Shown: positions 8,178-27,113, counted from the stretch's first letter. The stretch: 64,000 bases of DNA from a virus (IMGVR_UViG_3300021960_000059:4193-68192), one strand, 5' to 3'. Numbers and translations: made by a program. Notes: generated by a model not told the origin, from the sequence alone.

Positions 8178-8460
8178 TCATCACCTCATAGTTCATTTCT
8201 ACTGGAACGCTGACGGATTTCCCCCAACGATTCTTTTTTGTTACACATTTAAATCGACCGGGTATCCATCCTTCTGGTGGATCTGGTATATTCTTATCAA
8301 TTGCTGTGAGTTCGCGTGTAGTTGTACCAACAAAGATACGAGAGTCTTTCTTTCCTCGCATTGTGGCACGAACGCATGAATGGATTTGTCGATTGACATA
8401 ACGGTCAAACTTGTCTTCACCGTTTTCTCTGTAGAATACTTTAACTTCAAAATCACTCAT
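8101..8460 (-). CDS. Hypothetical protein
   Basis: ORF following tRNA-Trp, with a GAGAG leader before ATG at 8460. Confidence 0.55.
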   Translation of the reverse strand: MSDFEVKVFYRENGEDKFDRYVNRQIHSCVRATMRGKKDSRIFVGTTTRELTAIDKNIPDPPEGWIPGRFKCVTKKNRWGKSVSVPVEMNYEVMNEDQGRNGSNSGGSKRPVRSIGKAG

Positions 8461-8473
8461 AATGTCTCTCATG

Positions 8474-8547
8474 TGGCAGAGGCACAGGGATTTGAACCCC
8501 GACGAACGGTTTTGGAGACCGTCATGCTACCATTACACCATGCCTCT
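8474..8547 (-). tRNA. tRNA-Trp(CCA)
   Basis: Cloverleaf; anticodon arm ACGGT-CT-CCA-AA-ACCGT; GGTTCAAATCC T arm; encoded CCA. Confidence 0.95.
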
Positions 8548-8555
8548 AAAATAAA

Positions 8556-8732
8556 GTGCGGAACGGGTGGATTAGGGTAACCACCAATGGGGTACGATCT
8601 GAAGTACCTTTCTAAATAGACCCCATACGACCTGCATTCCCGCGAAGGACATGGGCGCTACCCCTTCGGTCTACCTTACCCCCCTTCAGCGAGAGGTATT
8701 CGGTCACGTTCCTATCGGTGTTGCAATCACCG
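8556..8732 (-). ncRNA. Multi-stem structured RNA within the tRNA cluster (manA-like candidate)
   Basis: Closing helix GGAACG/CGTTCC; stems GAAGG/CCTTC, GACC/GGTC, ATGGGG/CCCCAT, GGTAC/GTACC, GGTGG/CCACC; GC-rich and non-coding between two tRNAs. Confidence 0.65.
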
Positions 8733-8737
8733 AACTC

Positions 8738-8812
8738 TGGAGTGGATGATAGGAATCGAACCTACTTAAAACTGATTTGCAGTCAGTCACCTAACCATTC
8801 AGTCACATCCAC
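8738..8812 (-). tRNA. tRNA-Cys(GCA)
   Basis: ACTGA-CT-GCA-AA-TCAGT anticodon arm; GGTTCGATTCC; CCA end. Confidence 0.95.
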
Positions 8813-8818
8813 GAATTC

Positions 8819-8895
8819 TGGTCTCGTCGGCAGGATTCGAACCTGCGACCCTCTGCTTAGAAGGCAGATGTTCTATCCATCTGAACTACGACGAG
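8819..8895 (-). tRNA. tRNA-Arg(TCT)
   Basis: TCTGC-CT-TCT-AA-GCAGA; GGTTCGAATCC; CCA end. Confidence 0.95.
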
Positions 8896-8907
8896 GAAAA
8901 CACTTTG

Positions 8908-8980
8908 CTCGCGAGGTAGGACTTGAACCTACGACAACTTGATTAACAGTCAAGTGTTCTACCAACTGAACTACTCGCGA
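8908..8980 (-). tRNA. tRNA-Asn(GTT), no encoded CCA
   Basis: CTTGA-CT-GTT-AA-TCAAG; GGTTCAAGTCC; ends ...GCAAA. Confidence 0.9.
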
Positions 8981-9004
8981 GCAAAATGCTCTCTCAAAAC
9001 CACC

Positions 9005-9048
9005 GAGTGAGAGGAGGACTTATTTTGTCTGCCTCCTTTCTCTCACTC
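9005..9048 (-). other. Long leader hairpin of the tRNA-cluster transcript
   Basis: GAGTGAGAG..GGAGG..GAC / GTC-CTCCTCTCACTC inverted repeat directly after the promoter. Confidence 0.55.
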
Positions 9049-9057
9049 AGTACAGAC

Positions 9058-9087
9058 ATTATATAACAATATTTCGTCTGCTGTCAA
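9058..9087 (-). promoter_or_regulatory. Sigma70 promoter for the tRNA cluster
   Basis: TTGACA-18 bp-TATAAT. Confidence 0.75.
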
Positions 9088-9169
9088 TAACTATTTCAAA
9101 CTTTTTATTCTCAATAAAATCAAGCAGTTTTACATCATACTTAGGATATCCTTTAGGACAAGGAGTTAG

Positions 9170-9250
9170 GGTGGGGTGGGAACTTTGCGTTCCCATCTTG
9201 TCGGTGCGATAGAGGAGTATCTTGTTGAGAGAGGCATTCGCACCGCCCCG
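9170..9250 (-). ncRNA. Candidate small structured RNA
   Basis: GGGG/CCCC closing stem; CGGTGCGA/TCGCACCG stem with 28-nt loop; TGGGAAC-GCAAA-GTTCCCA hairpin; GC-rich intergenic segment. Strand is uncertain. Confidence 0.55.
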
Positions 9251-9269
9251 AAACTTCATATTACCACGT

Positions 9270-9731
9270 TTATAAAAACTTTGTCAACCCCTGATTCATA
9301 AAAATATCTTTTATTTTTTCGTGTTCTTCTCGTGTTTGTGACTCTAATCTTTTTTCTGGATTTAGAGTATCACCAACTAAAATAGTTCCACCACTCAATC
9401 TCTTTTTGCATAGGTCTACATTATCTCTCATAATGTCTACACCGTATATATCTGCCAGTGCTTCCTCTTCTGTCATGTTGTAGAAGTAAACCTTTATCCA
9501 CTTTACCGCAACAAGAAATTGACCGTCTCCACAAGCAGGGTCTAGAACTGTTTTTCCTTTGCAAAAAATATCTAGATCAGATTTTTTTAGCATATCTAAG
9601 ACTAACTCTGTTGGAGTAAATATTTCTGCTGTTGCCTTCACACGATATTCATCTCTTCCGATTTCTCCCATGTACTCATGGTCATTCATCTTCTGTTCGA
9701 TTTTATCCCAAATAACTTTCGACATAATCAA
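9270..9731 (-). CDS. N6-adenine DNA methyltransferase, SAM-binding half (motifs X, I-III)
   Basis: EIFTP, LDPACGDGQF, YGVDI, GDTL; lacks motif IV. Confidence 0.8.
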   Translation of the reverse strand: MIMSKVIWDKIEQKMNDHEYMGEIGRDEYRVKATAEIFTPTELVLDMLKKSDLDIFCKGKTVLDPACGDGQFLVAVKWIKVYFYNMTEEEALADIYGVDIMRDNVDLCKKRLSGGTILVGDTLNPEKRLESQTREEHEKIKDIFMNQGLTKFL

Positions 9732-10602
9732 TTTCTTTCCGAGTCAATTTAAACATACTAAACAAATCAGAGTCTGTCATTCTACCACAATTTAATATGT
9801 TTGGCAATGCCTTAAATACCTTTTCGTTGCCAAAACCTGACCATTTGGCAGTCTTGAGAATGTACTTAAACAATTTTAAATTTAAATTGTCGGCAAGGAT
9901 ATTACCAGAACTCTCGTTTGGGACCACGATATAATATGCCATATCTGTTCCACCATACACACCATCGTCATAGAATGGTTTAGTGTAACCACTGCGAGAC
10001 CACATTACCTTTTTCTCGTCTGCCCAATCTTGTCTGATACTTGAGTACCACACCTGAGAGTTTGTGTGAAAAATAGGGTAGATGTGTTTGTCTGTTTTTT
10101 CTTTGCTGATAACATCAGTACGATGAATTAAAACATTGTGGCAATTTACATAATCGTATCTTACATCAAGTTTGTCTTTTGTGTCAAATATAACTTTTTG
10201 ATGTATCGAATAAGATTCCTCACACATATCATTCGGCAAATAAAACGACGATTGATCTATCAGTTTGTCAAAGGTTCCATTGTCTGTCCCGATCTTAGTT
10301 TCGGTAGAATCCGACTGAGCATTGACAATCATGTAATCTGCAAAGGTGCTTCCAATATTGGGGAAGTATTTTTTAGTATCCAGATTTAAGAAACTCACCA
10401 CCTTGTCTTGGAATATTTTTAATATCTTGTTAGAAGGTGACAGAAAACTACTGGGAGAAACCTGAAGCAAAACACCATTTGGTTTTAACCACTCGTCAAA
10501 AGTTTTTTGTGTGAATGTGATCCACAACTTATGTTGAGTTTTTTTCCTGTTTAAAGAATCCTGAAAGGGGGGATTTGCAACGACAACATCAAATTTTATC
10601 AA
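9703..10602 (-). CDS. N6-adenine DNA methyltransferase, catalytic/TRD half (Eco57I/TaqI-like)
   Basis: Begins FDVVVANPPF (motif IV); no motif I. Confidence 0.8.
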   Translation of the reverse strand: MIKFDVVVANPPFQDSLNRKKTQHKLWITFTQKTFDEWLKPNGVLLQVSPSSFLSPSNKILKIFQDKVVSFLNLDTKKYFPNIGSTFADYMIVNAQSDSTETKIGTDNGTFDKLIDQSSFYLPNDMCEESYSIHQKVIFDTKDKLDVRYDYVNCHNVLIHRTDVISKEKTDKHIYPIFHTNSQVWYSSIRQDWADEKKVMWSRSGYTKPFYDDGVYGGTDMAYYIVVPNESSGNILADNLNLKLFKYILKTAKWSGFGNEKVFKALPNILNCGRMTDSDLFSMFKLTRKEIDYVESYLG

Positions 10603-11723: not shown

Positions 11724-11766
11724 TTTCTAAAACTCCTTAATACATTCTCTCTCGATCAACTGTATT

Positions 11767-12377: not shown

Positions 12378-12405
12378 AATTTCTCTCTCATCAACTTACA
12401 TATAC

Positions 12406-19380: not shown

Positions 19381-19408
19381 GTTCTCTCTTCTCTCAATCA
19401 ACATAGGT

Positions 19409-27040: not shown

Positions 27041-27113
27041 AATATATTCCTCTCTCAATCAACATAGGTAGTATCTCATATTCGACACCACCTGTATAAT
27101 GGTATTTTTCTAT

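Follow-up and report, generated by a model that had tools for sequence, protein, structure and literature searches.

A structured RNA element ahead of a phage tRNA array

The DNA analysed here (the window, 64,000 nucleotides) comes from a 68,192-base record of an uncultured virus, with an estimated completeness of 38%, and its minus strand holds all ORFs longer than 271 aa as well as all four tRNA genes. Taxonomically, the best cultured matches of its DUF6267 protein are Phage C48C1 (53% identity) and Stenotrophomonas phage DLP_6 (50%), followed by Methylophilales phage Melnitz (49.6%) and by Pelagibacter phage HTVC008M and cyanomyoviruses (~41%), with three of the cultured-match records filed under Kyanoviridae. 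Judged by these protein matches and this filing, the phage is an uncultured, Kyanoviridae-like relative of the T4-like marine myoviruses. A methylase-like gene (Pfam N6_Mtase, 9270-9731) and tRNA-Asn, the first member of an array of tRNAs and a manA-like RNA (Table 1), are 289 nt apart, and the element under study sits in this gap.

Table 1. Positions of the RNA element, its promoter, the downstream array and the GA-rich leaders, counted from the first base of the window.
Feature	Position	Strand	Description
Structured RNA element	9169-9250	minus	Three helices, ~82 nt, 3′ tail ACCC
P1	9249-9246 (GGGG) with 9176-9173 (CCCC)	minus	4-bp G-C clamp enclosing P2 and P3
P2	CGGUGCGA 9245-9238 with UCGCACCG 9209-9202	minus	7-8 bp across variants
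P2 loop	9237-9210	minus	28 nt, reads AUGCCUCUCUCAACAAGAUACUCCUCUA
Conserved loop core GCCUCUCUCAA	9225-9235	minus	Complement of UUGAGAGAGG(C), the "anti-leader"
Second loop pyrimidine tract ACUCCUCU	9211-9218	minus	Complement of AGGAG-type ribosome-binding site
Linker ACAAGA	9201-9196	minus	6 nt, purine-rich, joins P2 to P3
P3	9195-9189 with 9183-9177	minus	7 bp, loop GCAAA 9188-9184
sigma70-type promoter of the element	9258-9287	minus	-35 TTGACA 9287-9282, 18-nt spacer, TG, -10 TAATAT 9263-9258
Second promoter	9058-9087	minus	TTGACA-18-TATAAT, 12/12, perfect
GA-rich leader UUGAGAGAGCAUUUUGC	8981-8997	minus	Adjoins tRNA-Asn 5′ end; possible cis partner of the loop
tRNA-Asn	8907-8980	minus	ARAGORN, Rfam
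tRNA-Arg	8819-8895	minus	ARAGORN, Rfam
tRNA-Cys	8738-8812	minus	ARAGORN, Rfam
manA-like RNA (RF01745)	8556-8733	minus	Rfam
tRNA-Trp	8474-8547	minus	ARAGORN, Rfam
Candidate target leader GUUGAUUGAGAGAGGAAUAUAUU	27041-27063	minus	ATG 27040, CbbQ/CobS-like AAA ATPase (Pfam)
Candidate target leader GUUGAUUGAGAGAAGAGAGAAC	19381-19402	minus	ATG 19380; promoter 19436-19409 (TTGACT-16-TATACT with TG)
Candidate target leader GUUGAUGAGAGAGAAAUU	12378-12395	minus	ATG 12377, 55-aa ORF
Candidate target leader GUUGAUCGAGAGAGAAUG...AAGGAG	11724-11760	minus	ATG 11723; promoter 11796-11767

The methylase region consists of two overlapping minus-strand ORFs that each match a different section of an adenine-methylase profile: Eco57I positions 74-155 for the 299-aa ORF upstream (9703-10602) and N6_Mtase positions 23-95 for the 153-aa ORF downstream (9270-9731). 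Together they could represent a permuted, split or frameshifted methyltransferase; 43 relatives match the 153-aa part separately. At four loci (L028, L030, L032 and L036), another structured-looking stretch of ~150 nt lies downstream of the methylase homolog (at about 20-190 nt), reads GAGGGAUAUG...GGGGUUCAGGUGUAAGCGAUUCCCA...CCCCACUCCCUC, is preceded by a conserved AAAGUGU...UAGUGU motif and has no Rfam match at E <=0.1.

Structurally, the hairpin of the original prediction is real and was exact in sequence and coordinates, its 28-nt loop reading as written, but it proved to be just one arm of a larger three-helix element. The minus-strand fold has a z-score of -3.08, with fold energies for the window's copy of -39.1 kcal/mol for the plus strand versus -29.3 kcal/mol for the minus strand, and the G+C content of 55.8%, against 40.1% for the window, lies in the top 0.5% of 86-nt windows. 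The P2 loop is open and pyrimidine-rich with two G residues (23-30 nt across variants). It has few or no base pairs in the minimum-energy and centroid folds, both for the window and for five homologs; folded singly, each of these homologs reproduces the three-helix shape and leaves the P2 loop open.

Nine distinct full-length variants, the window's included, and one truncated variant (L049) were recovered from 14 uncultured-virus or metagenome records, each record carrying one copy. The P3 17-mer matched nine viral contigs, two of them real (L049 and L053, 92-93% identical over ~100 nt) and seven by chance, and a 20-mer from tRNA-Cys, a query independent of the element, matched 15 loci, five of which carry it (L053, L054, L056, L058 and L067). 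Degenerate patterns brought in L068, and among 12 metagenome stretches eight were real, including the new variants L073, L076, L077 and L079, and four were chance; a broadened pattern added only L108, a chance match. The covariance model R1 scored the window at 107.2 bits, the eight other full-length variants at 65-102 and the truncated one at 82.5; no other sequence in the fetched loci, 465,947 bases in all, exceeded 18.4 bits.

Evolutionarily, the helices are maintained: in the model-guided alignment of the nine variants (A6), 98.8% of 167 cells are standard pairs, and four pairs, two each in P2 and P3, have changes in both partners. The covariation score of 0.199, against 0.076 when shuffled, was reached by none of 500 shuffles, and in slid-partner controls pairing fell to 37-51%, figures that come from closely related variants (mean column identity 81%) and from an alignment fitted to the model. 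RNAalifold predicted the same helices. The P3 stem covaries, but GCAAA in its loop and A-N-AAGA in the linker do not vary, an invariance in part imposed by search patterns, which for L068, L073, L076, L077 and L079 pre-fixed P1, GCAAA and a portion of the linker; L054 and L067, found through the tRNA and free of this bias, have the same invariant P1, GCAAA and linker. Conservation of the loop, which the original prediction had asked for, was found in its 5′ half, GCC(UC)3-4AA, kept in eight of nine variants, and substitutions and indels have altered the 3′ half. Within the second tract ACUCCU is kept in five of nine variants including L068 and is degenerate in the other four, and all nine loops, that of L068 among them, share UGC, a pyrimidine run and A.

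Searches outside this set returned no further copy of the element. Over 9150-9270, Rfam 15 gave no family at the gathering threshold or at E <=10; at the gathering threshold its only matches were the four tRNAs, and none of the 16 matches at E <=10 over 8400-9320 overlapped that interval. Bacteria, sampled as one genome per species, yielded two pattern matches at 14-15 bits, both chance, and R1 at E <=1 had no match in the complete genomes of C48C1, Melnitz-3, DLP_6 and HTVC008M. The element is likewise lacking from the 43 methylase-homolog loci (BLAST over all 43, R1 over 30), the post-tRNA gene used as a homolog query had no relatives, the gene downstream of the element in L068 had one weak relative that lacks the element, and blastn of 8400-10400 against cultured phages matched tRNA parts alone. 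We found no description of the element or of the GA leader in the literature outside supplements, of which that of PMC2864571, among others, might list related motifs. On the strength of its sequence comparisons, the element is a real and new RNA family with covariation support, absent from Rfam and not a chance hairpin, and the family looks narrow and undescribed.

Promoter, strand and downstream transcript

The predicted sigma70-type promoter of the element scores 10/12, with TG, and transcription likely starts ~7-9 nt past the -10, at or just ahead of P1. TTGACA and TAATAT are identical in eight of nine variants, with differing spacers (17-18 nt) and differing upstream genes; the hexamers of L068 are TTGATT and TATAAT. 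The original prediction had allowed for a plus-strand transcript acting as a decoy of the leader, a reading we reject because the plus-strand upstream side has nothing conserved among the variants and no conserved promoter, because two G.U pairs in L068 fit the minus strand and become mismatches if read from the plus, and because the minus strand holds the ORFs longer than 271 aa and the tRNAs. As far as sequence can tell, the element looks discrete on the minus strand, as predicted, with a conserved promoter of its own of the kind expected for a small RNA.

Several other identities were tried and discarded. A small protein gene (66-aa ORF, 9259-9059) has no Pfam match, lacks its ATG in L053, L049 and L067, and is not conserved in frame, since the indels of the variants are not multiples of three. 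No intrinsic terminator was found at the element, where a U-run lies 4 nt past P1 in just four of nine variants, and it is not the terminator of the methylase-like gene, because the upstream gene varies between variants; no U-run is present either. Neither ARAGORN nor the Rfam tRNA model recognises a tRNA, tmRNA or tRNA-like structure, the P3 loop has 5 nt and not 7, and the 3′ ACC is missing in L068 and L079.

The element is always first behind its promoter, and in eight of nine variants it heads a tRNA/manA array, with several hundred nt of untranslated tRNA/manA RNA downstream. What directly follows it varies: tRNA-Cys after 5 nt in L053, tRNA-Thr after 4 nt in L073, a 21-nt GA-rich leader and then tRNA-Asn in L067, L076 and L079, a tRNA-Cys remnant and then manA in L077, and a protein operon in L068, with ~100 nt, a second perfect promoter, a conserved hairpin and then tRNA-Asn in the window and L054. 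A tRNA 5′ end thus lies 4-21 nt downstream in five of nine variants, and the first tRNA of the window begins ~190 nt away. No terminator was found behind the element, and because of this a discrete small RNA would depend on processing of the longer transcript. Assembled contigs from four RNA-library sets, which are contigs and not raw reads, cover 8474-8977 and leave 8978-9400 uncovered.

The hairpin behind the second promoter (9005-9048, minus strand) pairs a GA-rich arm containing AAGGAGG with a CCUCCUCUCACUC arm and keeps its loop GGCAG(A/C)CAAAAUAAGUCC while the stem changes (L054, L055 and L057); it appears to be a further conserved module in the leader of the tRNA-Asn transcript. Further downstream, the array is a shuffling hotspot (window, L053, L058, L067, L073, L076 and L077), where close relatives differ by entire modules: Asn-Arg-Cys-manA-Trp, Cys-manA-Trp or only Thr. 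All that is left of tRNA-Cys in L077 is a 26-nt acceptor-stem remnant, and in L054, L056 and L058 a 127-aa ORF with a borderline HNH match (21.2 bits, cut-off 21.4) lies between tRNA-Asn and tRNA-Cys.

The manA-like RNA lies in the 190-nt spacer between tRNA-Cys and tRNA-Trp and matches RF01745 over its full length (E = 2.2e-10) at 45.7 bits, below the gathering score of 55.2. Paired changes distinguish the window from L053 (for example, GGUGG...CCACC versus GGCGG...CCGCC), and RNA-library contigs from three studies, some of them identical, span this RNA, with DNA carry-over possible. manA has been described as a structured RNA of marine T4-like phages (PMC2864571); it lies here inside a tRNA array, whereas the description there places it in a 5′ UTR. 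As far as that description goes, manA and the element have the hypervariable tRNA region in common and are unrelated in sequence and fold, the element having no Rfam family.

GA-rich leaders and their complementarity to the loop

Four cassettes in the window consist of a promoter, a leader of the form (G/A)UUGAUUGAGAGAG... and AUG, the leaders running from 27063, 19402, 12395 and 11760 with the consensus (G)UUGAU(U/C)GAGAGAG... between promoter-like site and start codon. In this phage and its relatives, the GA-rich leader holds the ribosome-binding region of several genes behind sigma70-type promoters, two of the four in the window (19436-19409 and 11796-11767) passing the promoter scan. The arrangement of promoter, GUUGAUUGAGAGAG and AUG occurs in all element-bearing relative loci examined that are longer than a few kb: the cassette recurs in L053, L054, L056, L067, L073, L076 and L079, and at four promoter-like sites in the full record of L068. 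The 55-aa ORF gene carries it also in L053, L054, L067, L073 and L076, and the CbbQ/CobS-like leader is kept down to 73% protein identity as the sequence upstream diverges.

The shared leader of the original prediction is therefore real, promoter-proximal and conserved in relatives, and its GAGAGA tracts were found at 12389 and 11753. The leader is not, as had been supposed, the property of a whole gene class, because most phage genes use AGGAG/TAGGA-type sites without a GA leader, AGGAG and GGAGT being enriched upstream of start codons. Mechanical ORF calls begin within leaders (TTG 27058, ATG 19404 and ATG 8472), and the true starts of these genes are likely 27040, 19380 and 8460. A 10-bp hairpin just upstream of the CbbQ/CobS-like leader (27066-27093, minus strand) was flagged as terminator-like and overlaps the presumed weak promoter of that leader.

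The loop 10-mer has its exact complement in the cobS-like leader (27049-27058, minus strand), as originally predicted, and the partial complements foreseen just 5′ of tRNA-Asn (8988-8997) and near 19390 (19388-19397) were recovered with one mismatch each. Taken by itself, the 10-mer is at chance level, with nine matches in the window at up to one mismatch against 5.07 expected and nine of 100 shuffles reaching nine. The best duplex forms between the loop and 27063-27041: the exact 10-mer extends to 13 bp with one bulge at -21.7 kcal/mol, an energy reached by just 0.05% of 2000 random coding-strand windows, and the match continues past the repeat to include the leader's UUG/GAUUG. Other leaders have 8-bp-class matches to the loop. 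An accessible complementary seed, as expected of a small RNA, is thus present in the open loop of the predicted folds and its 10-13-bp match to this leader.

Pairing with start regions in general, which the original prediction would have had exceed that of shuffled controls, is no better than for composition-matched shuffled loops: over 62 start regions, crudely called and with three leader genes mis-started or missing, 22% of 200 such loops reach the observed mean, 13.5% the best value and 15.5% the count at or below -10 kcal/mol. Against shuffled start regions the loop does only marginally better (0.5% for the mean, 11.5% for the best and 6% for the count).

Across relatives, compared by reading the sequences, the evidence for joint conservation of loop and leaders is mixed: complementarity is kept in eight of nine variants, which are closely related to one another, but it is lost in L068, and the repeat lengths of the two sides do not co-vary, the loop core being of low complexity. 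The loops of L073 and L079 read CCUCUCUC(UC)AAUC, a gap-free 12-nt complement of GAUUGAGAGAGG, and pair in a different register from the other variants. In L068, the most divergent variant, the CU repeat is absent from the loop though its phage keeps the leaders, and ~6 bp are left as judged by eye. The element and the CbbQ/CobS-like gene occur together only in the window among the records searched, all fragments (two by protein, 23 with R1). The loop is modelled as open in every homolog folded, and its best-kept part complements the GA-rich leader.

Similar partners lie on the element's own transcript. In the window, the loop can pair in cis with the tRNA-Asn leader through AUGC, a bulged C and UCUCUCAA; this leader is directly 3′ of the element in L067, L076 and L079, and a GA tract also precedes the first gene behind the array (8470-8461).

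Possible roles in trans and in cis

Functionally, we tentatively propose, with more doubt than confidence, that the element is a 5′-leader RNA which, once released by tRNA processing, would mask GA-rich leaders by base pairing. Beyond the established sequence, covarying fold, strand, conserved promoter, array-head position, leader cassette and complementarity, we infer that the element is transcribed, cut free and pairs in trans with regulatory effect. Its own strong sigma70-type promoter would make an ~82-nt RNA as the 5′ end of the tRNA/manA transcript, in which the G-C clamp P1 would hold two arms, P3 with the invariant GCAAA and P2 with its unstructured 23-30-nt loop, and RNase P, acting at the 5′ end of the first tRNA (4-21 nt downstream in five of nine variants), would free a stable small RNA. 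The loop core GCC(UC)nAA and the second tract ACUCCUCU would then pair with the GA leader (G/A)UUGAUUGAGAGAG... of several promoters, hiding the ribosome-binding region from the ribosome and perhaps making an RNase III duplex, and translation of the leader genes would fall as the RNA accumulates. The loop may also pair in cis with the GA tract just 5′ of tRNA-Asn; in L067, L076 and L079 the released leader would bring its own GA partner ~20 nt behind P1, and this partner could occupy the loop as a pseudoknot. A broader version, which we regard as rather unlikely, would make the element a global "anti-leader" riboregulator, one abundant tRNA-processed RNA that pairs with the 5′ leader and ribosome-binding region common to sigma70-driven early messages and thereby times their shut-off.

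Base-pairing small RNAs with C/U-rich hairpin loops, such as staphylococcal RNAIII and RsaE-type RNAs, mask ribosome-binding sites. Like these, the element has a stable stem whose unpaired loop, rich in pyrimidines, is complementary to the purine-rich ribosome-binding regions of several messages; unlike them, it is phage-encoded, lacks its own terminator, forms the 5′ end of a tRNA precursor, has a complement that extends past the ribosome-binding site into a shared promoter-proximal leader, and has a function that is predicted. A regulatory RNA excised from a tRNA precursor is exemplified by 3′ETS-leuZ of E. coli (PMC8166272). As described there, the likeness is that a tRNA transcript contains a stretch other than tRNA, which processing would free and which would act by pairing, and such a position inside the tRNA primary transcript is found in eight of nine variants; in contrast to the description of 3′ETS-leuZ, the element is no 3′ spacer but a 5′ leader, has a larger three-helix fold, is phage-borne, and has messenger leaders, not small RNAs, as its presumed partners. 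In T4, the RegB endoribonuclease inactivates early messages at ribosome-binding sites (PMC3014915), and an "anti-leader" riboregulator would be the RNA counterpart of that action. By that account the likeness lies in the proposed outcome only, the inactivation of early messages in a T4-like phage: RegB is a protein that cuts GGAG, the element an RNA that would mask a GA-rich leader, and there is no homology between them.

A role in cis is a serious rival and equally open, because the same transcript carries GA-rich partners. As a leader of an untranslated operon, a possible if doubtful reading, the element would act in antitermination of the put or nut/boxA type, where the pyrimidine tract and the GCAAA hairpin could be factor- or polymerase-binding sites, or in folding and processing of the tRNA precursor, where the loop could pair with the GA tract that precedes the first tRNA or the first post-array gene. 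RNAs that mediate processive antitermination include HK022 put, lambda nut with its boxA and boxB, and the rrn leaders. In the general picture of these systems, the element is like them in being promoter-proximal and two-hairpin at the start of long, partly untranslated transcripts, and in combining a single-stranded pyrimidine tract with a hairpin of purine-rich 5-nt loop (presumably, the loop resembles boxA, and P3 a boxB-type hairpin); it differs in its closing helix P1 and very large loop, and Rfam 15 gives no hit for it. A cis role fits the element's constant place as the first thing transcribed behind a strong promoter, the several hundred nt of untranslated tRNA/manA RNA that follow in eight of nine variants and the operon that follows in L068, and a same-transcript GA partner in all eight CU-tract variants. 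It also fits a family-wide loop feature, L068 included, that is UGC with a pyrimidine run and A and not the exact anti-leader, and the invariant GCAAA and A-N-AAGA on a covarying P3, a pattern (partly imposed by the searches) of a recognised surface. However, no terminator or Rho site to be overridden was identified, the second promoter between element and tRNAs in the window and L054 weakens the need for read-through, a nearby GA partner is absent in L053, L077 and L073, and antitermination is often unnecessary for tRNA arrays, which are highly structured.

It is unlikely, though conceivable, that the element is a protein sponge or decoy whose CU-rich loop titrates a host protein (ribosomal protein S1, Rho or Hfq) or a phage protein. 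In all nine variants including L068, both tracts of the loop are rich in pyrimidines and poor in G, a strong promoter and stable fold would favour a high copy number, and the invariant GCAAA loop may offer a further contact, but neighbours differ between variants and so the gene neighbourhood indicates no partner, and this reading leaves unexplained that the loop also matches UUG/GAUUG, the part of the leader outside the repeat. A riboswitch-like sensor, in which ligand binding at a three-way junction would control the downstream sequence, has the three-helix junction, conserved purine-rich linker and covarying stems in its favour; the lack of an expression platform (no terminator), the tRNAs downstream in eight of nine variants and a most conserved unpaired part that is the long open loop and not the junction make it very improbable. 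We give hardly any credence to the element being no functional RNA at all, that is, a chance hairpin, the terminator of the methylase-like gene, the 66-aa ORF or a plus-strand mimic of the leader: the plus strand does fold more stably and the ORF does start with ATG, but compensatory changes conserve the element, nothing is conserved on the plus-strand upstream side and the ORF is not conserved.

To our knowledge, the small RNAs of lytic phages are poorly known, with almost nothing known for the abundant marine T4-like phages. The element adds a covariation-supported RNA family in their hypervariable tRNA region, beside the manA-like RNA. If the loop does mask the leader, it would be an RNA-only device that couples tRNA expression to early-gene shut-off, and would explain the common leader of those genes; if instead it acts in cis, it would represent a new type of promoter-proximal leader for untranslated phage operons.
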